DNA of 32,000 nucleotides from Rhodobacter capsulatus SB 1003 (lineage in GTDB: Bacteria > Pseudomonadota > Alphaproteobacteria > Rhodobacterales > Rhodobacteraceae): contig NC_014034.1 of NCBI RefSeq assembly GCF_000021865.1, positions 3,510,001 to 3,542,000 of the forward strand, read 5' to 3'. Each line of letters opens with the position of its first letter. Position 1 is the stretch's first letter. Below the pieces are notes generated by a model that had not been told where the DNA came from, ran no database searches, and saw nothing but the letters and a program-made list of their open reading frames with translations. A program made the translations under genes and the position numbers. Shown here piece after piece: positions 16,950 through 32,000 of this stretch.

Positions 16950-17036
16950 GGGCAGGCTCCTTTGGGCTGCGCGAGCATCGCCCGGCGCCGCAAAAAGGGC
17001 AAGCCTTCGGGCGGGCCGGTTCCTGCGGACCCCGCC

Positions 17037-18473
17037 TCAGCCCGCCTCGAAGCGAAACAGCGCCAGGGACCGTTCGCGTTCGTTCACCTGCAAGGGCCGG
17101 TTCACCGGGGCATGGGCGCGGGCGGTGCAATCGGCGCGTTCGCACAGATAGCAGTTCAGCCCGATCTCCACCGGCCGGGTGCGGGACAGGTCGATCCCCT
17201 CGGCATAGATCAGCCGCGGCGCATAGGCGACATCGCAGCCCAGCCCGATCGCCAACCGCTGCGCCGGGGCGCCCTGCGTGCCGCCCGCCCGCGTCACCGT
17301 GCGCGCCACCGAAAAATAACTTGCGCCTTCGGGCATGCGGATGACCTGCGTGCGCACTTCCTCCGGGGTCTCGAAAGCGGCATGGATGTTCCAAAGCGGA
17401 CAGGTGCCGCCAAAGCGCGAGAACGGAAACCGCCCGGCGCTGAAGCGCTTCGAGAGATTCCCCGCCCGGTCCACCCGCACGAAAAAGAACGGAATCCCGC
17501 GCGCGCCGTCGCGTTGCAGCGTCGACATCCGATGCGCGGTCTGCTCGAAACTGGTGCCGAAGCGATGCGACAGAAGCTCGACATCGTAGCGGTGCGACTC
17601 GCAGCTGGCCAGAAACCGGCCGTAGGGCATCATCAGCGCGGCGGCGAAGTAATTCGCCAGGCTCACCCGCATCAGCGCCGCCGCCGCCGGATCCTCCAGC
17701 CCCGCCGCAGCGATCAGCCGCGTCAGGATCGGCTCCTGCTCCAGACTGGCCAGCAGCACCCCGATCTGAAAGCGGCGGCTGGCCTGGCCCAGAAGTTCCG
17801 AAAGCAGCAATTCCCGCCGCTCGGGATCATAGCGGCGCAGCTGGCCGCGCATCGCCTCGGCCTGCCCGATCCGCACCGTCACCCCATGCGCCGCCAGCCG
17901 CCCGGTCAGCGCCAGATGCGGCTCGTGCCGGTGCAGGGCCAATTCGTCCGCCAGATCCTCGGCGGCGCGGTCGAGCGCATCGACATGGTTGCGCCGGGCG
18001 TAAAACCAGGCCCGCACCGCCTCGACCGGGCGCGAGGTTTCCCCCAGGGCTTCGACCTTGTCGCGGTCGGTCAGCGGGTTCTCCTCGGCCATCGGCGCCA
18101 GTACGGCGGCCCGATGCGCCGCCTGCAGCCGCACGAAAGCCGCCGCGATCCGGGGCGAGGCCTGCAACACCGCCTCGATCTCGGCGCGGGGCACGGCATC
18201 GGCCCCGGCGGCGGGCGTCTTCAGCGCGGCGGCGAAATCGGAGGCCAGCTGCGCATCCGCGGCGGGCGACAGCTCCGAGATGTTCAGATCATAGACCTCG
18301 GCCAGCCGCATCAGCAGCTTGACCGAGGCGGGGCGCTGATCGGCCTCGATCAGGGTGATGTAACTGGCCGAGACCCCCAGTTCCGCCGCCATCTGCGCCT
18401 GCGTCAGCCCCAAAGACTGCCGCAGCACCTTCAGCCTTTGCCCGATGACCAGCTTTTCCGCCCGTGGCGCCAT
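17037..18473 (-). CDS. ramB: XRE-HTH / ImmA-like peptidase-fold / DUF2083 transcriptional regulator (RamB/ScfR/actinobacterial-PrpR family), divergent from aceBA
   Basis: ORF 17037..18473: N-terminal HTH (IGQRLKVLRQSLGLTQAQMAAELGVSASYITLIEADQRP). Conserved core ANYFAAALMMPY...FFFVRVDRAGNLSKR. C-terminal Cys set (GGTCPLWN, LGCD, CYLCERADC), as in the Fe-S/CoA-sensing family. Paralogue of 26811..28193. Confidence 0.87.
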   Translation of the reverse strand: MAPRAEKLVIGQRLKVLRQSLGLTQAQMAAELGVSASYITLIEADQRPASVKLLMRLAEVYDLNISELSPAADAQLASDFAAALKTPAAGADAVPRAEIEAVLQASPRIAAAFVRLQAAHRAAVLAPMAEENPLTDRDKVEALGETSRPVEAVRAWFYARRNHVDALDRAAEDLADELALHRHEPHLALTGRLAAHGVTVRIGQAEAMRGQLRRYDPERRELLLSELLGQASRRFQIGVLLASLEQEPILTRLIAAAGLEDPAAAALMRVSLANYFAAALMMPYGRFLASCESHRYDVELLSHRFGTSFEQTAHRMSTLQRDGARGIPFFFVRVDRAGNLSKRFSAGRFPFSRFGGTCPLWNIHAAFETPEEVRTQVIRMPEGASYFSVARTVTRAGGTQGAPAQRLAIGLGCDVAYAPRLIYAEGIDLSRTRPVEIGLNCYLCERADCTARAHAPVNRPLQVNERERSLALFRFEAG

Positions 18474-18520
18474 GTGACAATCCTTACAGATTTCCCGCCT
18501 GTCACATGACGAAAGTGACA
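18471..18520. promoter_or_regulatory. Candidate operator in the ramB-aceB intergenic region: inverted repeat CATGTGACA-N20-TGTCACATG plus a third GTGACA
   Basis: Perfect 9-bp arms at 18471-18479 (overlapping the regulator ATG) and 18500-18508, with AGTGACAG at 18514-18521. Lies in the only AT-richer stretch between the divergent genes. Confidence 0.4.
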
Positions 18521-18628
18521 GAACAACCCAATGCTTTCAAACACATAATGCACATGCAGCGTAACATTACTAGCTTGACTTCACCCGAGTCACCCGGCGG
18601 CCCGAAGCCCCGCCCCGAAAGGAACCCC

Positions 18629-20251
18629 ATGTCGCTGGATTGCCCATCCCCCACCGCCCCGCCGCTGGTCCTGCGCCGCCTTCCCGGTCAGGATCTTGTG
18701 CTGACCCCCGAGGCACTGGCCTTTCTGGCCGAGCTGCAGACCCGTTTCGGCACCCGGATTCACGCGCTGATGCTGGCGCGCGCGCGCCGTCAGGCGCGGA
18801 TCGACGCGGGCGCCCTGCCCGATTACCTGCCCGAGACGAAAGAGATCCGGCAGGGCATCTGGGAGGCCGCGCCGGTGCCCGAGGCCCTGCGCGATCGTCG
18901 GGTGGAAATCACCGGCCCGGTCGAGCGCAAGATGATGATCAACGCGCTGAACTCGGGCGCGCGGGTGTTCATGGCCGATTTCGAGGATGCGACGGCGCCA
19001 AGCTTCGCCAATATCCTTGCCGGCCATCGCAACATGCTCGATTACCGCGACGGCACGCTGGAATTCGACGATCCGAAAACCGGCAAAAGCTATCGCGTCG
19101 GCGCCGATCCGGCGGTGCTGATCGTGCGGCCGCGCGGGCTGCACATGGCCGAGGCGAATGTGCTGCTGGCCGGGCAGCCGATCTCGGCGGCGCTTTTCGA
19201 TTTCGGCCTGACGCTGTGGCATTGCGGCCGGGCGCTGGCGGCCAGCGGCCGCGGCCCGTTCTATTACCTGCCGAAGCTTGAAAGCCACCACGAGGCGCGG
19301 CTGTGGAACGAGGTCTTCGTCTTTGCCCAGGACCGCGTCGGGCTGGCGCGGGGCACGATCAAGGCGACGGTGCTGATCGAAACCCTGCCCGCCGCCTTCG
19401 AGATGGACGAGATCATCTGGGAGCTGCGCGACCATATCGCCGGGCTGAACTGCGGGCGTTGGGATTATATTTTCAGCTACATCAAGACCTTGCGCAACCA
19501 CAAGGCGTTCACCCTGCCCGACCGCGCCGAGGTGACGATGGACCGCGCCTTTCTGGCCAGCTATGCGGCACGGCTGGTCAAGGTCTGCCACCGGCGCGGC
19601 ATCCACGCCATGGGGGGCATGGCGGCGGCGATCCCGGTGCGCGACGACGCCGTGGCGAACGAACGCGCCTTCGCCCAGATCCGCGCCGACAAGCTGCGCG
19701 AGGTGGGGATGGGCCATGACGGCACCTGGGTCGCCCATCCCGATCTGGTGCCGGTGGCGATGGCGGTCTTTGACGCCGAGATGCCGGGGCCGAACCAGAT
19801 CCGCATTCCGCGGCAGGCCTGGCGGATCGAACCGGCGATGCTGTTGCGCCCGCATGAGGGCCGGGTGACCGAGGCGGGTCTGCGCACCAATATCTCGGTG
19901 GCGCTCGACTATCTGGCGGCCTGGCTCTCGGGGCGCGGCGCGGTGCCGATCCGCAACCTGATGGAGGATGCGGCGACGGCCGAGATCTGCCGCGCGCAGC
20001 TGTGGCAATGGCGCCATCACGGCGTGTCGGTGGCGCTTGCGGCGGGCGGCAGCCGGGGGGTGAGTTCCGACTGGCTGGGCGAGCTGATGCAGCAGGAAAT
20101 CGCCACGGTGCTGGACCGGATCGGGGCGAACGCCTTTCACCGCGGCCATTACGCCACCGCCGCACGGCTGCTGCTGGAAGCCGTGACCGCCGAAACCCTG
20201 CCCGATTTCCTTACCACCGCCGCCTATGCGGTTTTGAACGCGCTCGACTGA
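18629..20251 (+). CDS. aceB: Malate synthase A
   Basis: ATG at 18629 preceded by GAAAGGA. VEITGPVERKMMINALNSGARVFMADFEDATAP..., GPFYYLPKLESHHEARLWNEVF..., NCGRWDYIFS are malate synthase A motifs (541 aa). The track start at 18464 is an upstream GTG inside the intergenic region. Confidence 0.94.
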   Translation: MSLDCPSPTAPPLVLRRLPGQDLVLTPEALAFLAELQTRFGTRIHALMLARARRQARIDAGALPDYLPETKEIRQGIWEAAPVPEALRDRRVEITGPVERKMMINALNSGARVFMADFEDATAPSFANILAGHRNMLDYRDGTLEFDDPKTGKSYRVGADPAVLIVRPRGLHMAEANVLLAGQPISAALFDFGLTLWHCGRALAASGRGPFYYLPKLESHHEARLWNEVFVFAQDRVGLARGTIKATVLIETLPAAFEMDEIIWELRDHIAGLNCGRWDYIFSYIKTLRNHKAFTLPDRAEVTMDRAFLASYAARLVKVCHRRGIHAMGGMAAAIPVRDDAVANERAFAQIRADKLREVGMGHDGTWVAHPDLVPVAMAVFDAEMPGPNQIRIPRQAWRIEPAMLLRPHEGRVTEAGLRTNISVALDYLAAWLSGRGAVPIRNLMEDAATAEICRAQLWQWRHHGVSVALAAGGSRGVSSDWLGELMQQEIATVLDRIGANAFHRGHYATAARLLLEAVTAETLPDFLTTAAYAVLNALD

Positions 20252-20374
20252 TGGACCCGATCCCGCTGTTTTCGCCCTTTGGCGGCCCGATCCCCGAAGC
20301 TTGCCTGAGACCCTCGGCGCAACCTTTTCCCGCTTCCCCCAAACCCCGGGCAGAGCCCGTCGAAAGGAAACACC

Positions 20375-21985
20375 ATGACGAAAAGACAGACTTTTTCGGA
20401 AATCCGCTCCGCTATCCTGTCCCGCTACCCCTGCGGGGTCACGCCGGGTGGCGTGGCGGTCGATGACATCGTGCAGCTGCGGCTGCAAAACACCTGGGAC
20501 ACGCATCTTGATATCGCGCGGGCGATGGCCGGGGTGATGCGCGCCGACATGGCGGCCTATGACGCCGATCCGACGAAATTCACGCAAAGTCTTGGCTGCT
20601 GGTCGGGCTTTCACGCGCAGCAGATGATCAAGGCGGTCAAGCGGATGCGGGGCACAGCGCGCGGCACCTATGTCTATCTGTCGGGCTGGATGGTCGCCGG
20701 TCTGCGCAACCGCTGGGGCCATCTGCCCGATCAGTCGATGCATGAAAAGACCGCCGTCGCCGATCTGATCGCCGAGATCTACACCTCCTTGCGGCAGGCA
20801 GATGAGGTCGCGATGAACGATCTCTTCAAGGCGCTGAAAGCCGCGCAGACCGAGACCGAGCGGCAGGCAGCGATTGCGGCGATCGACGGGTTCGAAACCC
20901 ATGTCGTGCCGATCATCGCCGATATCGACGCAGGCTTTGGCAACGAACATGCGACCTATCTTCTGGCGAAAGAGCTGATCAAAGCCGGGGCCTGCTGTTT
21001 GCAGATCGAAAATCAGGTCTCGGATGCCAAGCAATGCGGCCATCAGGACGGCAAGGTGACGGTCCCGCGCGAGGATTTCATCGAAAAGCTGCGCGCCTGT
21101 CGGCTGGCCTTCGAGGAGCTGGGGGTGGAAGACGGGGTGATCGTCGCCCGCACCGACAGTCTGGGCGCCGGTCTGACGCAGAAGGTGCCGGTGTCGCAAC
21201 GCCCGGGCGATCTGGCCTCGGACTACATCAAATGGCTGGCGACCGCGCCGATCAGCGCCGAAAACCCGATCCGCGAGGGCGAACTGGCGCTTTATCAGAA
21301 CGGCGCCTTCGTCAAGCCGCAGCGGCTGGCGAACGGGCTTTTCCCGTTCCGCCCCGGCACCGGCCGCGCCCGGGTGGTGGAAGATTGCATCGCCTCGCTG
21401 ACGCTGGGGGGCGCCGATCTTTTGTGGATCGAGACCGACACGCCGAATGTCGATGAAATCGCCGGGATGGTGGCCGAGATCCGCAAGGTCGTGCCCGATG
21501 CGAAGCTGACCTACAACAACTCGCCCAGCTTCAACTGGACGCTGAACCTGCGCAAGCAGGTGCGCGCGCAGTGGCTGGCCGAGGGCACGATCACCGAAGA
21601 CGCTTATCCGAACGGGCCCGAGCTGATGAAGCCCGACTATGACGACACGCCCTTCGGCCGCGAAGCCGATGCGTGGCTCAAGGCCTTCCAGACCGAGATC
21701 GCGACGCGGGCGGGGGTGTTCCACAACCTGATCACCCTGCCCACCTTCCATCTGACCGCGAAATCGATGGATGAACTCTCGCGCGGCTATTTCGGCGAAG
21801 ACAAGATGCTGGCCTATGTCGCCACGGTGCAGCGCGCGGAAATCCGCGGCGGCGTCTCGGCGGTGAAGCACCAGCACGAGGTCGGCTCGGATCTGGGCGA
21901 CACGTTCAAGGAGATGGTCGCGGGCGAACGCGCGCTGAAGGCGGGCGGGCATGCCAATACGATGAACCAGTTCGCGGCAGAGTGA
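20375..21985 (+). CDS. aceA: Isocitrate lyase, long (~535 aa) form
   Basis: ORF 20375..21985, GAAAGGAAA upstream. IIADIDAGFGN and the catalytic-loop signature KQCGHQDGK (variant of KKCGH). TDTPN... matches the ICL family. At 536 aa it has insertions relative to the ~430-aa enterobacterial type. Confidence 0.94.
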   Translation: MTKRQTFSEIRSAILSRYPCGVTPGGVAVDDIVQLRLQNTWDTHLDIARAMAGVMRADMAAYDADPTKFTQSLGCWSGFHAQQMIKAVKRMRGTARGTYVYLSGWMVAGLRNRWGHLPDQSMHEKTAVADLIAEIYTSLRQADEVAMNDLFKALKAAQTETERQAAIAAIDGFETHVVPIIADIDAGFGNEHATYLLAKELIKAGACCLQIENQVSDAKQCGHQDGKVTVPREDFIEKLRACRLAFEELGVEDGVIVARTDSLGAGLTQKVPVSQRPGDLASDYIKWLATAPISAENPIREGELALYQNGAFVKPQRLANGLFPFRPGTGRARVVEDCIASLTLGGADLLWIETDTPNVDEIAGMVAEIRKVVPDAKLTYNNSPSFNWTLNLRKQVRAQWLAEGTITEDAYPNGPELMKPDYDDTPFGREADAWLKAFQTEIATRAGVFHNLITLPTFHLTAKSMDELSRGYFGEDKMLAYVATVQRAEIRGGVSAVKHQHEVGSDLGDTFKEMVAGERALKAGGHANTMNQFAAE

Positions 21986-22006
21986 AGCAAGGGAGGGCCG
22001 AAAGCG

Positions 22007-22044
22007 CCGTGCCGCCCCACGACCCCGGGGCGGCACGGTTCTTG
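22007..22044 (+). terminator. Rho-independent terminator after aceA, possibly bidirectional
   Basis: Perfect 12-bp stem CCGTGCCGCCCC (22007-22018) / GGGGCGGCACGG (22027-22038), 8-nt loop, then TTCTTG. Lies between the convergent aceA and the minus-strand gene ending at 22062. Confidence 0.65.
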
Positions 22045-22061
22045 CGCGCGGGGCCCGGCGC

Positions 22062-23199
22062 TCAGGCGAAGACGCCGGGCATGACCCCCTGCGGCCCGGC
22101 GCCGATCAGCGTGGCAAGGCTGCCCATCGCCGCCCAGTCGATCCCTTGCACCGGCGCCAGCCCGGCGCGATGGCGCAGCAGCGCAAGCCGTTCCGCACAA
22201 TCCGCAAGCGGCCCCGAGCCCAGACCGCCCTGCAGGATCAGCCGGTCCGGCAGGGCCTGACGCAGGTCTTCCAGCAGCCGCGCCGACCGCCCGCCGGGGG
22301 CTTCGGCGCGCATCCTCGAGCCGGTCACGATCACCACCGCCCCGGCTTCGCCGCGCAGGCTGTCCAGGATGTCGCCAAGCTCAAGCTCGAGGATCACCCG
22401 CACGACAGCCCCGCAAGGCGCAACAGATCCGCCTTCAGGATCGTGCCGATCATCTCGGTTTCCCCCGGCGGCATCACGATGCAGACCCGCCCGCGCGGCG
22501 GCAGCGGCTGCGACGGCCGCCCCGCTCGCTGCAGCAGGCTGTTCAGACGGGTCTGCGCCAGAGCCACCTCGGCAAAGCCGATCGCCGCGGCCTCCTGCAT
22601 CTGGCCAAGCCGCTGCAGGCTTTCCGCGACGAACCCGGCCCGCGCCTGCAGATCGTCGCGCGCCAGCACCGGCAGGGCTGGCTCCGCCGCGCTGTCCAGC
22701 AGCCTTTCGACGAAATCGGGCACCCGCCGCAACAGGTCGGATTGCGCGAAAGAGCCCAACGCATGATCTTGCGCCAGATCGTCGAAGACGCGCTGCGCCA
22801 GCGCCAGCAGATCCTCCTCCGGCCGCCACGCCGTCCCGTCGCGCAGGCGGGCGGGGTGCTGATGCAGGACCGCCTGCCGCAAAGGCCAGCGGGGAAAGCG
22901 GCGCCTGTCGGTCCAGCCGACCGAAAGCAGCCGCGCCTCGGCCAGCCGGGGGTCGGGGCGATCTGCGCCATCGCGGCGCAAAGCTGCGGCCCGCCCTTCG
23001 ATCCAGTGCAGCCAACCGTCCTCGACCGCAACCGTCGCCCCGCACAGATCTGCGCGCCCGGCAGGGCCGCCAGATCGTGCCGGATCGGGGCGCCGGTCTG
23101 CGGCGGGTCCGCCGCGCGGGCCGCGCCGATCAGAACCAGGCGCAACAGCCGTTGCCTGCCGGGCAAAGAAGTTTCCATCGCGTCCATTTTCACCGCCAT
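22062..23199 (-). pseudogene. Riboswitch-controlled gene for a cobalamin-binding-domain-like protein; reading frame broken twice (pseudogene, sequencing compression, or recoding)
   Basis: Protein-like translation runs through three minus-strand frames. Segment 1 is 23199 to ~23045 (MAVKMDAMETSLPGRQRLLRLVLIGAARAADPPQTGAPIRHDLAALPGAQIC). Segment 2 is ~23044 to ~22412 (ATVAVEDGWLHWIEG...RVCIVMPPGETEMIGTILKADLLRLAG). Segment 3 is ~22411 to 22062 (AVVRVILELELGDILDSLRGEAGAVVIVTGS...GVFA*). ATG 23199 has a GGGAGG Shine-Dalgarno. One extra G at each junction restores a single 1140-nt (379-aa) ORF. Confidence 0.5.
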
Positions 23200-23297
23200 G
23201 CGCGCCTCCCTGAACAGGGGCGGGGAAACGGCGACACGAACCAAGGCGCGGGCCTCAGGCTTCACGTCCCCCCGGTTCACCCCGCCCGAAACGTCTG

Positions 23298-23474
23298 CGA
23301 TGGCAGGTCTCCTGGCTTGCGGGTCATCGCGCCCCCGGACCTTCCCGGGCGCGGGCCCAGTGGCATTTCCGGCGTTGCTCGTCGCTCACAGTTGCGGGGG
23401 CAGCCGCGGCCTTGCCCGGACGGGCGCACCGCATTCCCTTTTCAGGCGCAGCCCCGAAGACCGCGCCACCATCG
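23298..23474 (-). promoter_or_regulatory. Cobalamin (B12) riboswitch, minus strand, upstream of the 23199 start codon
   Basis: Minus-strand read: CGATGG...AAAAGGGAATGCGGTGCG...GCGGCTGCCCCCGCAACTGTGAGCGACGAGC...GCCACTGGGCCCGCGCCCGGGAAGG...AGCCAGGAGACCTGCCATCG. Conserved core (GGGAA..GGTG, CCCCGCAACTGT, B12 box GCCACTG, GGGAAGG, CAGGAGACCTGCC) and a closing P1 (CGATGG/CCATCG). Confidence 0.82.
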
Positions 23475-23648
23475 CCACAAGGATGAAAGCAACCGGCGGC
23501 GCTGTAAAGCGGGTTTGCGCCCCCAAAGGGCCGCTGCGCGGCACTCGGTCGCAGGCGGCACCGGCCTGGCGCCTGTTTGCACGGGCTGCGGCGGGCCTTG
23601 GGCGGCGGGCGGCGGCAGGCGCAGCGGCAGCAAAGGGAAAACTACATG

Positions 23649-23678
23649 TTGACACCAAGCGCCGGTTGATTGCTATAT
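23649..23678 (+). promoter_or_regulatory. Sigma70-type promoter candidate for the riboswitch-nrdD transcript
   Basis: TTGACA (23649-23654), 18-nt spacer, CTATAT (23673-23678), placing the transcription start just before riboswitch P1. Confidence 0.45.
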
Positions 23679-23684
23679 CGTGAC

Positions 23685-23850
23685 GCTCTGGGTCTTGCGG
23701 TTCCCCGCAAGCCAAGAGGGAAGCCGGTGCGATTCCGGCGCTGCCCCCGCAACTGTAAGCGGCGAGCGCGGCTGATCACGCCACTGGGCCCCGGCCCGGG
23801 AAGGCCAGCCAAGCTGTGACCCGCAAAGCAGGAGACCTGCCCGAGCCTTG
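23685..23850 (+). promoter_or_regulatory. Cobalamin (B12) riboswitch, plus strand, upstream of nrdD
   Basis: CTCTGGGTCTTGCGGTTCCCCGCAAGCCAAGAGGGAAGCCGGTGCGATTCCGGCGCTGCCCCCGCAACTGTAAGCGGCGAGCG...GCCACTGGGCCCCGGCCCGGGAAGGCC...AGCAGGAGACCTGCCCGAG. All conserved cobalamin-riboswitch core elements, including the B12 box, are present. About 100 nt upstream of the nrdD ATG. Confidence 0.87.
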
Positions 23851-23951
23851 ATGACCACCGCTGGCGGAGGGCCGTGCGGGGCGCTGTCGGACCCGTTGCC
23901 GGGGCCGTACGGCGTTCCCGTCCCTGCAAAGGCCCAAGGACGAGGACCGCG

Positions 23952-25982
23952 ATGCCGATCGCCGATGCTGCTTTGACTGCCCCCGCGGGTTTTTCCACCC
24001 TGCGCACCCGCGATGGCGCGCTTGTGCCCTTTGACGCCCGCCGCATCGTGGCGGCGCTGGCGCGGGCGGGCGATGCCAGCGGCGAATTCGGCGCGGCCGA
24101 GGCCCGGGACCTGACGCAAGCGGTGCTTGACCGGCTGGCGCTTCTGGCCCCGGCCAGCCCCCCCGATGTCGAGACGATCCAGAACATGGTCGAGGCGGTC
24201 CTGGCCGATACCGCCCATGTTGCCACCGCCCGCGCCTATGCGGTCTACCGCGACCAGCACGCCCGCCTGCGCGCGGACAACCGGGTGCTGATCGACGTTG
24301 AACGCTCGGTCAGCGAATATCTGGAACGCTCCGACTGGCGGGTGAATGCCAATGCCAATCAGGGCTATTCGCTGGGCGGGATGATCCTGAACATCTCGGG
24401 CAAGGTGACGGCGAATTACTGGCTGAGCCATGTCTATCCGCCCGAGGTCGGCGAAGCGCATCGCGAGGGCGACATCCATATCCACGATCTGGACATGTTC
24501 GCGGGCTATTGCGCGGGCTGGTCGCTGCGCACGCTGCTGCACGAGGGGCTGAACGGCGTGCCCGGCGCGATCGAATCCGCCCCGCCCGCGCATCTGTCAA
24601 GCGCGCTGGGGCAGATCGTCAACTTTCTGGGCACGTTGCAGAACGAATGGGCGGGGGCGCAGGCGTTTTCCTCCTTTGACACCTATCTGGCGCCCTATGT
24701 GCGGCTGGACGGGCTGAGCTATGCGCAGGTCCGTCAGGCGATGCAGGAATTCATCTACAACCTGAATGTCCCCTCACGCTGGGGCACGCAGACGCCCTTT
24801 ACCAACCTGACCTTTGACTGGACCTGCCCCGAGGATCTGCGCGATCAGGTGCCCATGGTGCAGGGCCGCGAGGTGGGCTTCACCTATGGCGATCTGCAGG
24901 CCGAGATGGACCTGATCAACCGCGCCTATATCGAGGTGATGACGGCGGGCGATGCCAAGGGGCGGGTTTTCACCTTTCCGATCCCCACCTACAACATCAC
25001 CCCGGATTTTCCGTGGGAGAGCGACAACGCCGATGCGCTGTTCGAGATGACGGCGAAGTACGGGCTTCCGTATTTCCAGAATTTCGTGAATTCGGAATTG
25101 CAGCCGCATATGGTGCGCTCGATGTGCTGCCGGTTGCAGCTGGACCTGACCGAGCTGCTCAAGCGCGGCAACGGGCTGTTCGGCTCGGCGGAACAGACCG
25201 GATCGCTGGGCGTCGTCACGCTCAATTGCGCGCGGCTCGGTCATCTGCACCGCGGCGACGAGGGCGAGCTGATGGTGGCGCTGGATCATCTGGCGCGGCT
25301 CGCGCGCACCAGCCTTGAGATCAAGCGCAAGGTGATCCAGCGCCATATCGATGCCGGGCTTTTCCCCTATACCAAGCGCTACCTTGGCACGCTGCGCAAC
25401 CACTTCTCGACGCTCGGCGTGAACGGGCTGAACGAGATGGTGCGGAATTTCACCGCCGATGCCGAGGATATCACCACCGAGGCGGGCAAGGCGCTGGCGC
25501 TGCGGGTGCTTGATCGGCTGCGGGCGCAGATGGTGGCCTTTCAGGAAGAGACCGGCCATCTTTACAACCTTGAAGCCACCCCGGCCGAGGGCACGACCTA
25601 TCGCTTTGCCCGCGAAGACCGCAAGCGCTTCCCCGGCATCCTGCAGGCGGGCACGGCCGATCAGCCCTATTACACCAATTCCTCGCAGCTGCCGGTGGGC
25701 TTCACCGATGACCCGTTCGAAGCCCTGGCGCATCAGGAAGCGCTGCAGGCGAAATACACCGGCGGCACCGTGCTGCATCTTTACATGGGCAGCCGGGTCT
25801 CCTCGGCCGAGGCCTGCCGCAAACTGGTGCGCCGGGCGCTGACGAACTTCCGCCTGCCCTATATCACCGTCACCCCCACCTTCTCGATCTGCCCGAAACA
25901 CGGCTACATCGCGGGCGAACACGAATTCTGCCCGAAATGCGATGCCGAACTGATCGCGAAGAAACGCGCCTGCGCCTGCTGA
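23952..25982 (+). CDS. nrdD: Anaerobic ribonucleoside-triphosphate reductase (class III) large polypeptide: ATP-cone plus catalytic barrel plus Zn-ribbon, but no glycyl-radical motif
   Basis: ATG at 23952 preceded by AAGGACGAGGA. N-terminal ATP-cone (LRTRDGALVPFDARRIVAAL...). NISGKVTANYWL, IHIHDLD, NEWAGAQAFSSFDTYLAPY, TFPIPTYN, MCCRL and LEATPAEGT..YRFA are NrdD motifs. Ends ...CPKHGYIAGEHEFCPKCDAELIAKKRACAC*. Confidence 0.92.
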   Translation: MPIADAALTAPAGFSTLRTRDGALVPFDARRIVAALARAGDASGEFGAAEARDLTQAVLDRLALLAPASPPDVETIQNMVEAVLADTAHVATARAYAVYRDQHARLRADNRVLIDVERSVSEYLERSDWRVNANANQGYSLGGMILNISGKVTANYWLSHVYPPEVGEAHREGDIHIHDLDMFAGYCAGWSLRTLLHEGLNGVPGAIESAPPAHLSSALGQIVNFLGTLQNEWAGAQAFSSFDTYLAPYVRLDGLSYAQVRQAMQEFIYNLNVPSRWGTQTPFTNLTFDWTCPEDLRDQVPMVQGREVGFTYGDLQAEMDLINRAYIEVMTAGDAKGRVFTFPIPTYNITPDFPWESDNADALFEMTAKYGLPYFQNFVNSELQPHMVRSMCCRLQLDLTELLKRGNGLFGSAEQTGSLGVVTLNCARLGHLHRGDEGELMVALDHLARLARTSLEIKRKVIQRHIDAGLFPYTKRYLGTLRNHFSTLGVNGLNEMVRNFTADAEDITTEAGKALALRVLDRLRAQMVAFQEETGHLYNLEATPAEGTTYRFAREDRKRFPGILQAGTADQPYYTNSSQLPVGFTDDPFEALAHQEALQAKYTGGTVLHLYMGSRVSSAEACRKLVRRALTNFRLPYITVTPTFSICPKHGYIAGEHEFCPKCDAELIAKKRACAC

Positions 25983-25999
25983 CCCCAAAGGAGAACCCG

Positions 26000-26188
26000 A
26001 TGAACAAGCCGCTGACCCAGACCGACCTTGAAAGCGCGATGACCCTTGACGATGCCGAACGCACCCGCTGCGAGATCTGGACGCGGGTGATGGGCTATCA
26101 CCGGCCGATGGCCTCCTTCAACACCGGCAAGAAGGGCGAGGCGGCCGAGCGGGTCTATTTCTCCGAAGCGCGGGCGCATCTTGGCTGA
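26000..26188 (+). CDS. Small (62 aa) stand-alone NrdD C-terminal glycyl-radical segment
   Basis: ATG at 26000 preceded by AAAGGAG at good spacing, 17 nt after the nrdD stop and in a different frame. TRVMGYHRPMASFNTGKKGEAAERVYF matches the canonical NrdD C-terminal RV.GY....N.GK..E...R glycyl-radical motif. Confidence 0.75.
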   Translation: MNKPLTQTDLESAMTLDDAERTRCEIWTRVMGYHRPMASFNTGKKGEAAERVYFSEARAHLG

Positions 26189-26798
26189 GCTGGCGCTCTC
26201 GGGCCTCGTGCGGCACTCGGCCTGCGACTGGCCGGGGGAGCTGGTGGCGGTGCTTTTCACCCAGGGCTGCCCCTGGTCCTGCCGCTATTGCCACAACCCC
26301 GACCTGATCCCGGCCCGGGCGGGAACCCTGCCCTGGGCCGAGGTGCGGGACTTTTTGCAAAGCCGCCGCGGGCTTCTGGACGGGGTGGTGATCTCGGGCG
26401 GCGAGCCGACCCTGCAGGCCGCCCTGCCCGCCGCGCTGGCCGAGATCCGTTCGATGGGCTTTCGCACCGGGCTGCACAGCGCCGGGCCTTACCCCGAGCG
26501 GCTGGCCCGTGTGCTGCCGCTTCTGGATTGGGTGGGCTTTGACGTGAAGGCGCCCTTTGCCGATTATCCGCGCATCACCGGCGTGCCCGGATCGGGGCTG
26601 CGGGCGCAGGAAAGCCTGCGGCTTCTGCAGGAAAGCGGCGTCGCCCATGCGCTGCGCACGACGGTGCATCCGCGCCTGCTGGGCGCCGCGGATCTGGACC
26701 GGATCGGCGCCGATCTGGCCGAGCTGGGCCTGCCGATGGCAGAGCTGCAACCCTTCCGCGCCGCGGGCTGCATCGACACCGAGCTTTGCGCGACCTGA
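26181..26798 (+). CDS. nrdG: Anaerobic RNR activating protein (radical SAM)
   Basis: ORF 26181..26798. The TTG start overlaps the preceding stop (TTGGCTGA). SACDWPGELVAVLFTQGCPWSCRYCHNP (CxxxCxxC radical-SAM cluster), VVISGGEPT. Confidence 0.86.
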   Translation: MAELALSGLVRHSACDWPGELVAVLFTQGCPWSCRYCHNPDLIPARAGTLPWAEVRDFLQSRRGLLDGVVISGGEPTLQAALPAALAEIRSMGFRTGLHSAGPYPERLARVLPLLDWVGFDVKAPFADYPRITGVPGSGLRAQESLRLLQESGVAHALRTTVHPRLLGAADLDRIGADLAELGLPMAELQPFRAAGCIDTELCAT

Positions 26799-26810
26799 CC
26801 GCTTCGCCCC

Positions 26811-28193
26811 TCACTCCGAGCCGGAATAGGGGGCGAAGCGGGTTTCCTCGGGGCGCAGCCGCAAGGGCTTTCCCAGCGTCGGAAAGGCGCGCTGCGGGCA
26901 ATCGGCGCGCTCGCAGAGCTTGCAGCCCGGGCCGATCTTCGTTGCCAGATCGGGCGCGCGCAGGTTCAGCCCGCGCGCATAGACCAGCCGGTCGGCATGG
27001 GCCAGATCGCAGCCCAGCGCGACGGCGAAGCGCTTTTCCGCCGCGCCGAAGCCGCCGCCGCCCTGCCGCAGCTGTCGGGCGATCCACAGATAGCTGCGGC
27101 CATCGGGCATCTGCGCCACCTGCCGCAAGATCTCGTCCGGGCGGGAAAACGCCTCGTAGATGTTCCACAAGGGACACGACCCGCCGATGCGGGAAAAGTG
27201 GAAATCGGTGGCCGATTGCCGCTTCGAGATATTGCCCGCCCGGTCCACCCGGATGAAAAAGAACGGCACGCCGCGCGCCTCGGGCCGTTGCAGGGTCGAC
27301 AGCCGGTGGCAGACGGTCTCGAAACCGACGCCGAAGCGGTGCGCCAGCAGCTCGATGTCGTAAGACAGCGCCTCGGCCGCGGCCAGAAAGGCGCGGTAAG
27401 GCATGATCAGCGCACCGGCATAATAATTCGCCAGCCCCACCCGCAACAGCGCCTGCGCCTCGGGGTCCAGCTGCGTCGCCGCGCACAGCCGCGCCATCAG
27501 CCCGCCCTGTTCCAGAAGCGCCAGCTGCGTCGCGATCTGAAAGGCCTGCTGGCCGGGCGTCAGATGCGCGCCCAGATGCAAGAGCCCCGCCCCCGGCTCG
27601 AACCGGCGCAGGATACCGCCCTCGGCATGCAGAATGCGGATGCCGTGCCGCGTGGCCAGACGCTCGGCCAGGGGCTGCGCCATCCGCCCGGCGGGCAGAT
27701 CCGCCCCCACCGCCTCGGCCGCGGTGTCAAGATCGGGGACATGGTTGCGGCGTTCGTAAAACCAGTCCCGCACCGCCTCGAAGGCGGCGGGGCTGGAGCT
27801 TGCGGGCGTGCTGATCTGCCCCGCCAAGGCATCGGCGCGGTCGGACAGATCGCGCAGCCGCGCCTGCATCGCCACGATCGCCCGCGCGACGGCGGGCATG
27901 TTCGCCGCGATCTCCCGCACTTCGGCCAGACTTGCCCCCGCCCCCTGATCGGCCAGCGCCCCGCGCAATTCGGCAATCAGCCGCGCCTCGTCGGCATCCG
28001 AAAACAGCTGCACATCCAGCCCGAAGGCGGCGTTGAGCTTGAGCAGCACCGGCACCGTCAAGGGCCGCTGGTTGTTCTCGATCTGGTTCAGATAGCTTGG
28101 CGAAATTTCCAGCGCGCGGGCAAGGCTTGCCTGCGTGATGCCGCGATCCTCGCGCAGCCGTTTCAGCCGCACCCCCATGAATGCCTTTGCCAT
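26811..28193 (-). CDS. XRE-HTH / DUF2083 regulator (ScfR / actinobacterial-PrpR type), divergent from the methylcitrate operon; paralogue of 17037..18473
   Basis: ORF 26811..28223. ATG at 28193 (MAKAFMGVRLKRLREDRGITQASLARALEISPSYLNQIENNQRP) aligns best with the paralogue N-terminus. ANYYAGALIMPY, FFFIRVDRAGNISKR, GGSCPLWN, LGCD and CKLCERADC are colinear with the ramB-like protein (roughly half the residues identical by eye). Confidence 0.87.
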   Translation of the reverse strand: MAKAFMGVRLKRLREDRGITQASLARALEISPSYLNQIENNQRPLTVPVLLKLNAAFGLDVQLFSDADEARLIAELRGALADQGAGASLAEVREIAANMPAVARAIVAMQARLRDLSDRADALAGQISTPASSSPAAFEAVRDWFYERRNHVPDLDTAAEAVGADLPAGRMAQPLAERLATRHGIRILHAEGGILRRFEPGAGLLHLGAHLTPGQQAFQIATQLALLEQGGLMARLCAATQLDPEAQALLRVGLANYYAGALIMPYRAFLAAAEALSYDIELLAHRFGVGFETVCHRLSTLQRPEARGVPFFFIRVDRAGNISKRQSATDFHFSRIGGSCPLWNIYEAFSRPDEILRQVAQMPDGRSYLWIARQLRQGGGGFGAAEKRFAVALGCDLAHADRLVYARGLNLRAPDLATKIGPGCKLCERADCPQRAFPTLGKPLRLRPEETRFAPYSGSE

Positions 28194-28283
28194 CTTCGCA
28201 ACCTTCGCAATTCGCCGCGTCAAGCTTCACAATATAACGCTATATCAATACTTTAACGGGAATGCCGAAAGCAAGGAAAGCTG

Positions 28284-28304
28284 CCTTTGCCAATCTTGCA
28301 AAGG
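28284..28304. promoter_or_regulatory. Candidate operator: palindrome CCTTTGC-N7-GCAAAGG just upstream of the first prp-operon gene
   Basis: 7-bp perfect arms at 28284-28290 and 28298-28304. Contains TTGCAAA (28296-28302), 7 of 8 positions of the TTTGCAAA core reported for actinobacterial RamB/PrpR sites. Overlaps the thioesterase Shine-Dalgarno region. Confidence 0.4.
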
Positions 28305-28310
28305 TTTCCC

Positions 28311-28694
28311 ATGCCCCTCCCCCCTGCCCCGCCGACCGTTCTGGTCGAGATGATCTTTCCCGATCAAGCGAACCATTACGGCACGCTGTTTGGCGGCCAT
28401 GCGCTGGCGCTGATGGCGCGGGCGGCCTTTGTCGCCGCCTGCCGCCGCGCCGCGGGGCCGGTGGTGATGGCACGATCCGAGCGGGTGGATTTCGCCACCC
28501 CGATCCGGGTCGGCGAGATGCTGGAACTGCGCGCCGAAATCCTGCGCGAGGGGCGCAGCTCGCTGACCGTGGCGGTGCGGGGCATCGCCCAGCCGATCGG
28601 CCCCGGCGCCCCCCGCCCGGCGCTGGACGGACAATTCGTGATGGTCGCCGTCGATGCCGACGGCCGTCCCCGCCCGCTTTCTTCCGCAATCTGA
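28311..28694 (+). CDS. Hotdog-fold acyl-CoA thioesterase (YciA/BFIT-like)
   Basis: ATG at 28311 (the track start at 28287 is a TTG). VEMIFPDQANHYGTLFGGHALALMARAAFVAA ... VDFATPIRVGEMLELRAEILREGRSSLTV is the typical acyl-CoA thioester hydrolase hotdog pattern. Confidence 0.78.
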   Translation: MPLPPAPPTVLVEMIFPDQANHYGTLFGGHALALMARAAFVAACRRAAGPVVMARSERVDFATPIRVGEMLELRAEILREGRSSLTVAVRGIAQPIGPGAPRPALDGQFVMVAVDADGRPRPLSSAI

Positions 28695-28715
28695 CGACAA
28701 GCAAGGAAAGACCCG

Positions 28716-30227
28716 ATGAAGACCCATGACCTGCGCAGCTACCGCTCGGCCGAGATCCTGCCGCGTTCCGAACAGCTGGCCTGGAAGATCGCCGAAGTGG
28801 CCGCCGACCCGGTGCCGGTGCTGCCCGAAGTGACCGAGATGATCATCAACCGCGTCATCGACAATGCCGCCGTCGCCGCCGCCTCGGTCGGGCGCCGCCC
28901 CGTCGCCTCGGCCCGGGCGCAGGCGCTTTGCCACCCGATGCGGCGCGGCGCCACCGTCTTCGGGATGCCGCATGGCACCCGGGTCTCGCCGGAATGGGCG
29001 GCCTGGGCGAATGGCACGGCGGTGCGGGAACTCGACTTCCACGACACCTTTCTGGCCGCCGATTACAGCCATCCGGGCGACAACATCCCGCCGATCCTGG
29101 CGGTGGCGCAGCACACCGGGCGGTCGGGCGCCGAGCTGATCCGGGGGATCGCCACCGGCTATGAAATTCAGGTCGAACTGGTGCGCGGGATCTGTCTGCA
29201 TGAACACAAGATCGACCATATCGCCCATCTCGGGCCCTCGGCGGCGGCGGGGATTGGCACGCTGCTGAACCTGCCTGCCGAGGTGATCTATCAGGCGGTG
29301 CAGCAGGCGCTGCATGTGACGACCACGACACGGCAAAGCCGCAAGGGCGAGATTTCCAGCTGGAAGGCCTTTGCCCCGGCCTTTGCGGGCAAGATGGCGA
29401 TCGAGGCGGTGGACCGCGCCCTGCGCGGCGAAGGCGCCCCCAGCCCCGCCTGGGAGGGGGAAGACGGTTTCATCGCCTGGATGCTCTCGGGCCCAGATGC
29501 GCGTTACACCGTCCGCCTGCCCGGCCATGGCGAGCCGAAACGCGCCATCCTTGACACCTATACCAAGGAATATTCGGCGGAATATCAAAGCCAGGCGCTG
29601 ATCGACCTGGCCCGCCGCCTTGGGCCGCAGATCGGCGATCTGGTGCAGGTCGACAGCATCGTGATCCACACCTCGCATCACACCCATCACGTCATCGGCA
29701 CCGGCGCCAATGATCCGCAAAAGATGGACCCCGACGCCAGCCGCGAGACGCTGGACCATTCGATCATGTATATCTTTGCCGTCGCGCTGGAGGATGGCGG
29801 CTGGCACCATGTCCGCAGCTATGCCCCCGAACGCGCGCATCGGCCCGAAACGGTCGCGCTCTGGCACAAGATCTCGACCGTCGAGGACCCGGACTGGACG
29901 CGCCGCTATCATGCCCGCGATCCGAAGCAAAAGGCCTTTGGCGGCCGCGTGGTGGTGACGCTGAAGGACGGGCGGCAGATCGTCGATGAACTGGCGCTGG
30001 CCGATGCCCACCCCGACGGCGCCCGACCGTTCCGGCGCGAGAATTACGTGCGCAAGTTCCTGACCCTGTCCGACGGCATCCTGAGCGGCGCGGAACAGAC
30101 CCGCTTTCTGGATGCGGCGGAAAACCTGGCCGATCTGCCCGCCGACGGGCTCGGTCTTCTGAATTTCACCGTGGCGGCCGATGCCCTGGGCGCGCCGCGT
30201 CCGCGCGGCATCTTCGATTGGGAATGA
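28716..30227 (+). CDS. prpD: 2-methylcitrate dehydratase (MmgE/PrpD family)
   Basis: ORF 28716..30227 (503 aa): [17 protein letters not shown]..., [58 protein letters not shown] are PrpD motifs. Sits in a prpD-prpC-prpB context. Confidence 0.92.
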
Positions 30228-30237
30228 GGGGGAAATC

Positions 30238-31413
30238 ATGTCCGGTTCGATCGTGAAACCGAAGAAATCCGTGGCCCTGTCCGGGGTGGTGGCGGGCAAT
30301 ACTGCGCTGTGCAGCGTCGGCCAGACCGGCAACGACCTGCATTACCGTGGTTTTGACATTCTTGAAATTGCCGAATCTTGCGAATTCGAGGAAGTGGCAC
30401 ATCTGCTGATCCATGGCACCCTGCCGACGCTGGCGGAGCTGGCCAGCTATCGCACCAAGCTGCGGGCGCTGCGCGGGCTGCCCTTGGCCGTGCGCCAGAC
30501 GCTCGAGGCGATCCCGGCCGCCGCGCATCCGATGGATGTGCTGCGCTCGGGCGTCTCGGCCTTGGGCTGCGTGCTGCCCGAGGCCGCCGATCACAACACG
30601 CCCGGCGCGCGCGACATTGCCGACCGGCTGATCGCGGTGCAGGGCTCGATGCTGCTTTACTGGTATCACTTCGCGCAGAACGGCCGCCGCATCGAGGTCG
30701 AAACCGAAGACGACAGCATCGCCGGGCATTTCCTGCATCTGCTGCATGGCCGCCCCGCGGGCGAGGAAGCCGTGCGGGCGCTGCACACCACGCTCAACCT
30801 TTATGCCGAACACGAGTTCAACGCCTCGACCTTCACCGCGCGCACCATCGCGGGGACCGGATCGGATCTTTATTCCTGCGTCGCGGGCGCCATCGGCGCG
30901 TTGCGCGGGCCGAAACACGGCGGCGCGAATGAACAGGCCTTCGAAATCCAGAAGCGCTACGCCACCCCCGACGCGGCCGAGGCCGATATCCGCGCCCGGG
31001 TGGCCGCGAAAGAGGTGATCATCGGCTTTGGTCATCCCGTCTACACGATCGCCGATCCGCGCAATGTGGTGATCAAGCAGGTGGCGCGGCGGCTGGCGCT
31101 GCATCACGGCGCGCTGCGGATGTTCGACATCGCCGAGCGGATCGAACAGGTGATGGCCGAGACGAAGGCGATGTTTCCGAACCTCGACTGGTATTCGGCG
31201 GTCTCCTATCATCAGCTGGGCGTGCCGACGATGCTGTTCACGCCGATCTTCGTCATCGCCCGCAGCGCGGGCTGGGGGGCGCATGTGATCGAGCAACGGC
31301 TGGACGGCAAGATCATCCGCCCTTCGGCGAATTACACCGGCCCCGAAACCCGGGCCTTCCTGCCCCTTGAAGCCCGCGGCGGCCTTTTGACCGCGCCCAA
31401 CCGGACGGAGTGA
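30238..31413 (+). CDS. prpC: 2-methylcitrate synthase (citrate synthase family)
   Basis: ATG at 30238 preceded by [81 protein letters not shown] are citrate/methylcitrate synthase motifs. Lies between prpD and prpB. Confidence 0.92.
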
Positions 31414-31416
31414 GAC

Positions 31417-32000
31417 ATGCCCTATCTGATCGGTTCCGATCATCCCGAGGCCCCGGCGGGGGCGCGGTTTCGCGCCGCCCTGGCCCGGCCCGGCATCCTG
31501 CGCCTGCCGGGCGCGCATAACGGCATGGCCGCGCTGCAGGCGAAAGCCGCGGGGTTTCAGGCGCTTTATCTGTCGGGCGCGGCGATGTCGGCCTCGATGG
31601 GCCTGCCGGACCTCGGCATCCTGACGGTGGACGAGGTCGCCTTTTTCATCCGCCAGATCACGCGGGCCTCGGGGCTGCCGCTTCTGGTCGATGGTGACAC
31701 CGGCTATGGCGAGGCGCTGAACGTCATGCACATGGTCCGGGTGTTCGAAGAGGCCGGGGCGGCGGCGGTGCATCTGGAAGACCAGCTTCTGCCGAAGAAA
31801 TGCGGCCATCTGAACGACAAGAAACTAGCAAGCCCGGCCGAGATGGCGGCCAAGGTCGCGGCGGCGGTGCGGGCACGGCGGCATCTGGTGGTGATCGCGC
31901 GGACCGATGCGGCGGCCGCCGAGGGGATCGAGGGGGCGGTGGCGCGGGCGCAGCTTTATGTCGAGGCGGGCGCCGATGCGATCTTCCCCGAGGCGCTGAC
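31417..32000 (+). CDS. prpB: Methylisocitrate lyase, N-terminal ~194 aa; the 3' end runs off the window
   Basis: Hand translation from ATG 31417: MPYLIGSDHPEAPAGARFRAALARPGILRLPGAHNGMAALQAKAAGFQALYLSGAAMSASMGLPDLGI...LLVDGDTGYGEALNV...AAAVHLEDQLLPKKCGHLNDKKL. The KKCGH signature and the ICL/PEP-mutase fold are present. Absent from the ORF track because there is no stop inside the window. Confidence 0.9.
   Translation, partial: MPYLIGSDHPEAPAGARFRAALARPGILRLPGAHNGMAALQAKAAGFQALYLSGAAMSASMGLPDLGILTVDEVAFFIRQITRASGLPLLVDGDTGYGEALNVMHMVRVFEEAGAAAVHLEDQLLPKKCGHLNDKKLASPAEMAAKVAAAVRARRHLVVIARTDAAAAEGIEGAVARAQLYVEAGADAIFPEAL

Follow-up and report, generated by a model that had tools for sequence, protein, structure and literature searches.

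Why does a bacterium able to process acetate and propionate through vitamin B12 (cobalamin)-dependent pathways also carry B12-free routes for both, and why are these routes found side by side around cobalamin riboswitches? The question is raised by a 32,000-nucleotide stretch of Rhodobacter capsulatus SB 1003 (contig NC_014034.1, positions 3,510,001 to 3,542,000 of the forward strand; hereafter the window), in which ramB, aceB, aceA, a frameshifted gene, two divergent cobalamin riboswitches, nrdD, an open reading frame (ORF) of 62 aa, nrdG, mccR, a thioesterase gene and prpDCB are contiguous (Table 1). A preliminary description had placed the glyoxylate shunt, ribonucleotide reductase (RNR) and methylcitrate genes next to each other with both riboswitches in their middle, as profile, Pfam and RF00174 matches confirm, and had suggested that they form a B12-bypass module. 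We propose that the region is probably part of a B12-sparing gene island distributed across Alphaproteobacteria; the genomic pattern of linkage is strong.

Cobalamin riboswitches exert repression upon binding B12. The enzymes Ecm, Mcm, NrdJ, MetH and QueG require B12, while the cargo enzymes described below do not. The core of the proposed island would be a methylcitrate cassette controlled by an ScfR-family regulator (mccR-thioesterase-prpDCB), often accompanied by ramB-aceA(B). The cargo around this core would consist of exchangeable B12-free stand-ins and of B12 or cobalt importers, mostly located behind cobalamin riboswitches. The tasks covered are otherwise unrelated, from the use of acetate and propionate to the synthesis of DNA precursors, methionine and a tRNA base.

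Linkage of prp and ace to B12 genes in other genomes

An adjacency peculiar to this strain, which would have counted against the preliminary description, could be rejected, as the same linkage recurs in relatives and in other genera, with differing B12-free partners. We searched the 6-kb flanks of 76 mccR-prpDCB cassettes for a B12 marker, defined as a cobalamin riboswitch, a B12-free isozyme or a B12 gene, and found one beside 53 of them (a riboswitch in 31 cases and a B12-free isozyme in 47). By comparison, a marker was present in one of 40 fixed-rule windows from the same genomes and at none of 26 other prpD loci. For aceA, 10 of 35 close homologues have a B12 marker, versus none of 53 distant ones. 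When PrpD sequences are merged at 90% identity, 27 of 45 clusters remain linked (20 if riboswitches alone are counted); at 85% identity, 10 of 15 do (7 if riboswitches alone are counted). Cassettes of another gene order (prpD-prpB-prpC, presumably the actinobacterial type) have B12 neighbours in none of 15 cases. Negative cassette loci include those of Gemmobacter, of several Paracoccus and of genomes G227, G021 and G023, and an Rfam check of six negative loci confirmed them as negative. Linkage of prp and ace to genes of the B12 regulon exceeds background in separate lineages.

The identity of the neighbours varies (NrdDG, NrdHIEF, NrdAB, MetE, MesD/X, QueH, GbcAB and BtuB): three RNR classes and several types of methionine synthase occupy the same position, and the isozyme genes often directly abut the cassette. 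Within the genus Rhodobacter, prp abuts a riboswitch followed by nrdHIEF (class Ib RNR) in three genomes and a riboswitch followed by btuBFCD in one. Another arrangement, in one genome of the genus, has riboswitch-nrdHIEF, ramB-aceBA and mccR in a row up to a contig end that matches the start of the contig carrying prp. Other genera provide the order metH-riboswitch-prp-mccR-aceAB-ramB-nrdFEIH-riboswitch, as well as riboswitch-mesX-mesD against prpB. Strains of Paracoccus denitrificans also carry riboswitch-mesX-mesD, some 2.4 kb away from mccR in the direction of icl, and Stappia shows the order aceA-mccR-prp-mesX-mesD. Roseibium carries gbcAB on one side of the cassette, abutting mccR, and a MetE-type gene on the other, queH lies between aceA and mccR in Thalassospira, and riboswitch-nrdA (class Ia) is frequent behind mccR in metagenomic cassettes, as is riboswitch-metE behind prpB. 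Linkage of aceA was also observed in Xanthobacter and Henriciella, the only riboswitch of the latter being located 3 kb from ramB. The search of the genus of genome G330 covered two genomes. Finally, a sister species of R. capsulatus (genome G001) has a riboswitch-led segment with a metE-like gene and queH, apparently with frame breaks, between two divergent switches (L043:2211-8100), and another switch directly after aceA. The loci considered here are compatible both with differential loss from a single ancestral island and with repeated recruitment, though this sister species did gain a segment.

Two further ORFs recur at these loci. Beside several prp cassettes, btuBFCD is followed by a DUF6925 gene (L050:17881-18852, L264, L266 and L268), and an ORF of 80 aa, often followed by queH, lies after aceA at L300:7076-7318 and in many Paracoccus loci; none was seen after the aceA of the window.

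Several points weigh against the B12-sparing reading, among them the limits of the counts. About one third of the cassettes have no B12 neighbour, and the link is much weaker for aceA than for prp. The list of isozyme markers was partly drawn from the same loci, the riboswitch count alone being preset, and since the loci share ancestry, the counts are not independent events. The controls were fixed-rule windows and other prpD loci, rather than accessory genes of matched frequency. This last point also favours the view that patchy genes simply gather in plastic regions, where riboswitch-led genes are common, so that the linkage would be unrelated to B12. Both aceA and prpD are indeed patchy (10 and 15 of 300 family genomes, respectively), and the left edge of the cluster, at 17037, is a rearrangement breakpoint. 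Such an accessory-gene hotspot nevertheless appears improbable, as the neighbours are specific (a known B12-free isozyme within 6 kb at 47 of the 76 loci) and the other patchy prpD homologues and the checked negatives yielded no marker. Moreover, the presence of ace and prp follows the loss of the mutases, and a riboswitch next to prp is uncommon in genomes that have lost them.

Mutase loss and control of the carbon pathways

The relation to mutase loss was examined in Paracoccus, with a set of 155 genomes lacking completeness values, so that some gene absences may be assembly gaps. No acyl-coenzyme A (CoA) mutase was found in 19 of these genomes, 18 of which carry aceA together with prpD (the remaining one is a 2.0-Mb assembly). 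The aceA gene is present in 17 of the 20 genomes with Mcm only and in 18 of the 114 genomes with both mutases, 12 of the latter having prpD. On an RpoB tree, no fewer than three changes are needed to account for mutase loss, and grouping in a single clade is rejected (p-AU, approximately unbiased test, 1.2e-5). Two genomes of the genus Rhodobacter (99-100% complete) represent a separate loss: they have neither the two mutases nor ccr and kept ace and prp, which brings the number of losses in Paracoccus and the genus Rhodobacter to at least four. At the genomic level, ace and prp stand in for the B12-dependent mutase pathways, and the island is a likely path for lineages losing such pathways. 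A riboswitch is located beside prp in 15 of 23 mutase-keeping genomes versus one of 20 mutase-lacking ones, which is consistent with a back-up used conditionally in genomes that have both routes and with a permanent replacement in the others.

In two mutase-lacking genomes, ramB-aceBA abuts a cobalamin biosynthesis cluster (L056:11155-19956 and L058:37-10686).

How, then, may B12 shortage reach carbon pathways that have no riboswitch of their own? As the preliminary description had stated, only nrdDG and the frameshifted gene are directly behind riboswitches within the window. More generally, across the loci examined, the first identified gene behind a riboswitch is never ace, prp, ramB or mccR (the first gene is unlabelled in 11 cases), and the cargo is convergent, tandem or divergent relative to the cassette depending on the lineage. 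Control of the carbon pathways by B12 is thus probably indirect. Riboswitch-led transcripts might still act in cis on ace and prp, by read-through or by antisense overlap at convergent ends. These ends are very tight in R. capsulatus, with 12 bases between nrdG and mccR and 10 between gbcB and prpB, and in Rhodovulum sulfidophilum (L373:5553-13621), where mccR is missing locally, thioesterase-prpDCB lies on the same strand behind a riboswitch-led ATP-binding cassette (ABC) transporter operon. However, the orientation of the cargo is not conserved between lineages and no direct riboswitch control of ace or prp was found in the loci examined, which makes control in cis extremely improbable.

Published work on Paracoccus suggests how an indirect connection may operate. 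Beta-methylmalyl-CoA shifts RamB whereas ethylmalonyl-CoA does not, and in the authors' model a back-up of propionyl-CoA triggers MccR, then RamB (PMC10370305). In Mycobacterium tuberculosis, cobalamin represses the PrpR operon (PMC12713380). Under the B12-sparing reading, a shortage of B12 or cobalt would lead the riboswitches to release nrdDG and gbcAB, while stalled Mcm would cause propionyl-CoA and subsequently beta-methylmalyl-CoA to accumulate, thereby activating MccR and RamB. The genes of the island may stay together because they were selected, and probably transferred, together.

The published mutants of SB1003 also tell against this reading. Deletions of icl and mccR have no phenotype, and deletions of ccr and pccR impair growth on acetate and on propionate, respectively, with icl and prp intact (PMC10370305); the B12-free routes thus did not fill in under standard growth. 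In addition, icl induction in Paracoccus requires Ccr (PMC10370305) and, as ethylmalonyl-CoA, which would accumulate upstream of an Ecm deprived of B12, is inert on RamB, deep B12 starvation could lower aceBA expression instead of raising it. The module suggested by the preliminary description is therefore favoured by the linkage and by the presence of B12-dependent counterparts in the genome (see below), whereas a simple bypass under standard growth is opposed by these mutants.

The same mutants are compatible with an inherited island that has become partly silent, in which the riboswitch-led genes alone would still answer B12 in R. capsulatus, while aceBA and prp would serve high acetate flux, low bicarbonate or propionyl-CoA detoxification, or would be rarely used. 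Both routes avoid carboxylation steps, neither ace nor prp nor the genes of their regulators are preceded by a riboswitch in the loci examined, and aceBA was lost in one close relative. On the other hand, the genes and their promoter words are intact and conserved, and the gain of the metE-like and queH segment by the sister species indicates that B12-free cargo is still arriving. Furthermore, the text reporting the mutants mentions neither B12, cobalamin nor cobalt, so that limitation apparently lay outside these experiments (PMC10370305). We regard a partly silent island as unlikely. Shortage of B12 or cobalt, a situation absent from the published mutant work, is our proposed reason for the existence of two routes each for acetate and propionate in R. 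capsulatus and Paracoccus, and for second routes that look dispensable in the laboratory.

The locus in R. capsulatus and its AppA-like gene

The cluster is larger than the 15 kb first attributed to it. Beyond prpB, it continues past the window with riboswitch-led gbcAB, metH, two cobQ genes, three more riboswitches, btuBFCD and cbiZ. In total, six of the 14 cobalamin riboswitches of the genome fall inside 21 kb, the chance level being 3.5% of the genes of this genome within 6 kb of such a riboswitch. A third cobQ-like gene sits in the main cob cluster.

The preliminary description had made its hypothesis dependent on B12-dependent counterparts elsewhere in the genome, and these are present: mcm beside pcc, ecm beside ccr, two NrdJ, a split MetH, QueG and an MtgC-like corrinoid protein. 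The two class II RNRs are different proteins (755 and 1224 aa), both above cut-off (C1:642199-644466 and 1580750-1584424). A search of the R. capsulatus genome found neither metE, nor the gene for the class I RNR small subunit (nrdB), nor queH. Full B12 independence of this genome is thus rejected, and the island can spare B12 without freeing the cell from it. B12 would be spared for the steps that have no alternative here, namely MetH, aerobic NrdJ and BchE, so that the need for it would remain. Class III RNR works only without oxygen, and the anaerobic phototrophic growth under which it operates would also need B12 for BchE.

Composition provides no clear signature of recent transfer: the G+C content (0.63-0.73) lies around the genome mean (0.67), and the annotated genes include no integrase. 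Old transfers may explain the patchy spread and the mixing of genera in a PrpD tree. At the left edge of the cluster, near 17035, the junction between xth and ramB is a rearrangement breakpoint, and xth-trxA is located elsewhere in four sister species, beside gbcAB-metH in one of them.

Table 1. Features of the locus. Positions are those of the window, unless preceded by the name of another contig or locus.
Feature	Position	Strand	Evidence and remarks
ramB, ScfR-family regulator (helix-turn-helix (HTH), IrrE-like and ScfR domains)	17037..18473	-	Pfam PF09856 E 3e-65; divergent from aceBA
ramB-aceB promoter words (TGACA/CTTACAG boxes, ACATTAC), probable RamB operator region (predicted binding)	18474..18575	.	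ACATTAC in 20/21, CCTTACA in 15/21 orthologous intergenic regions
aceB, malate synthase A, 540 aa	18629..20251	+	TIGR01344 725 bits, above cut-off
aceA, isocitrate lyase, 536 aa	20375..21985	+	PRK06498 867 bits, above cut-off
GC-rich hairpin, possible terminator, between convergent aceA and AppA-like gene ends	22006..22040	.	fold z-score -2.0; has no T-run and was not called by terminator scan
AppA homologue, frameshifted here, 380 aa if intact	22062..23199	-	profile and fold matches
Cobalamin riboswitch ahead of AppA-like gene	23285..23488	-	RF00174 128.9 bits
Cobalamin riboswitch ahead of nrdD	23673..23858	+	RF00174 132.2 bits
nrdD, class III (anaerobic, B12-free) RNR with ATP cone, 676 aa	23952..25982	+	PRK08270 and TIGR02487, above cut-off
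62-aa ORF with RVMGY glycyl-radical tail absent from main NrdD ORF (split NrdD)	26000..26188	+	sequence; weak PF13597 match in another strain
nrdG, radical-SAM (S-adenosylmethionine) activase	26181..26798	+	TIGR02495, above cut-off
mccR (PrpR-like), ScfR-family regulator	26811..28193	-	PF09856 E 2e-70; divergent from prp operon
mccR-prp promoter words (CTTCGCAA repeat, TTGC[C/A]AA boxes), probable MccR operator region (predicted binding)	28190..28305	.	CTTCGCA in 23/23 orthologous regions
Acyl-CoA thioesterase (hot-dog fold)	28311..28694	+	PF03061 E 2e-12
prpD, 2-methylcitrate dehydratase	28716..30227	+	NF042438 933 bits (slightly below cut-off 950); MmgE/PrpD Pfam domains
prpC, 2-methylcitrate synthase	30238..31413	+	PRK12351, above cut-off
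prpB, methylisocitrate lyase, 303 aa	31417..32000, stop 328 bases beyond window	+	Pfam PEP_mutase/ICL in 99% identical strain
GbcAB-like Rieske oxygenase and reductase, with own cobalamin riboswitch, directly after prpB	C1:3542339-3544880 (L022:1339-3880)	-	
Two tandem full-length cobQ genes upstream of split metH	L022:7810-10835	-	

Both riboswitches of the window are full-length aptamers (model positions 1-189), with scores to be compared with the RF00174 gathering threshold of 31.5. Folding of their leaders yielded no clear switch (z 0.09 and -1.3), and scans for sigma-70 promoters and terminators gave counts at chance level. The products of ramB and mccR score 412 and 549 with the Corynebacterium-type RamB model, below its cut-off of 700; their HTH, IrrE-like and ScfR domains and their divergence from the target operon fit the ScfR family (RamB class 2 and MccR, respectively). 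Putative MccR is the name given to the regulator located at this position (PMC10370305). The promoter words of both operons are intact in the window. The separate ORF for the NrdD tail is kept in Rhodobacter relatives and in one Paracoccus genome.

The frameshifted gene encodes an AppA-like protein. Profiles match AppA (4HH0, E 1.9e-13) and AerR (7TE2, E 4.8e-9), Foldseek retrieves AppA (E 4e-8), and the BLUF-like, helical bundle and SCHIC/B12-binding-like domains fit the BLUF and SCHIC architecture of AppA. As the AlphaFold model is poor (mean predicted local distance difference test score, pLDDT, of 54), its fold match alone was used. Pfam searches with the separate frameshifted pieces gave no match. 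Five bases, distributed over four sites (near 23051, 22993, 22959 and 22404), are missing and disrupt the frame; compared with two other strains, every gap is a deletion within a G/C-rich run. An unbroken allele found on 42 contigs agrees with the frames of the window at every residue except one, and intact copies occur in four sister species as well as in other R. capsulatus strains. Given the G/C-rich location of the deletions and this near-identical allele, an assembly error is likely and a true pseudogene of the species unlikely.

The R. capsulatus copies have Ile and His in place of the BLUF Tyr and Gln, both of which are kept in most distant members of the subfamily, and a BLUF search of this genome gave no match. 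The His that ligates a tetrapyrrole (heme or cobalamin) is absent from the aligned members, GETEMIG aligning with GHKPILE of AppA and GEQHTLG of AerR. Two remote homologues, with 33-34% identity, likewise follow riboswitches and have mccR or metE-prp as neighbours. The predicted complex with CrtJ scored 0.40, against 0.00 for the best of three controls; at least 81% of contacts were common to the runs, and the partner pLDDT was at least 67. This support is weak, and as a like complex has been solved (4HH3), the score may reflect memorisation of that structure by the predictor. When the score was calibrated, 58 of 80 solved and 2 of 110 mismatched pairs attained the mark, but at 0.60 or less only 7 of the 80 solved pairs did so, along with both mismatches. 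By the logic of the island, the AppA-like protein could replace the B12-dependent photoreceptor AerR.

This possibility belongs to a broader and doubtful extension of the B12-sparing reading, according to which a modular B12-independence island would form a single two-tier regulon, with riboswitches governing single enzymes and acyl-CoA sensors governing pathways. Such an island might have repeatedly permitted mutase loss, its unexplained members might be undiscovered B12-free substitutes, and the AppA-like protein might take the place of AerR in CrtJ control. Because three RNR classes, several methionine synthases, QueH and GbcAB occur in these neighbourhoods, the latter may provide a rule for finding new B12-free enzymes and regulators.

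Comparison with known systems

The individual parts of the locus and the riboswitch repression of B12-free isozymes are already known. As a general rule, reportedly set out by Rodionov and Vitreschak in 2003, RF00174 riboswitches repress B12-independent isozymes such as metE, nrdAB and nrdDG. The locus conforms to it in that riboswitches lead into nrdDG and gbcAB and that their B12-dependent partners are present in the genome. It differs in that these isozymes are gathered with riboswitch-free carbon pathways and that the type of isozyme is swapped between lineages. A literature search short of most subscription journals found no account of this physical gathering with the methylcitrate and glyoxylate cassettes.

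The AppA-like protein shares its BLUF, helical bundle and SCHIC architecture with AppA of Cereibacter (Rhodobacter) sphaeroides and with AerR/PpaA, antirepressors of PpsR/CrtJ. In contrast to these proteins, the homologue of the window is riboswitch-led and has no His ligand, and the capsulatus copies have lost the BLUF Tyr and Gln; with about 380 aa, it also apparently has no Cys-rich tail, unlike AppA.

A close counterpart of the carbon genes is found in P. denitrificans Pd1222, which has the same genes and regulators, with ramB-ms-icl (Pden_1365-1363), an arrangement matching ramB-aceBA of the window, close to mccR-prp (Pden_1350-1346). There, however, the redundancy of pathways was read as flux tuning, with no mention of B12, cobalamin or cobalt (PMC10370305). 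In M. tuberculosis, where metE is also under a cobalamin riboswitch, the relation between the methylcitrate cycle and the methylmalonyl pathway follows the same metabolic logic, with an ScfR-type regulator and indirect control by B12 (PMC12713380). The difference lies in the clustering, which we observed with the prpD-prpC-prpB order and not with prpD-prpB-prpC.

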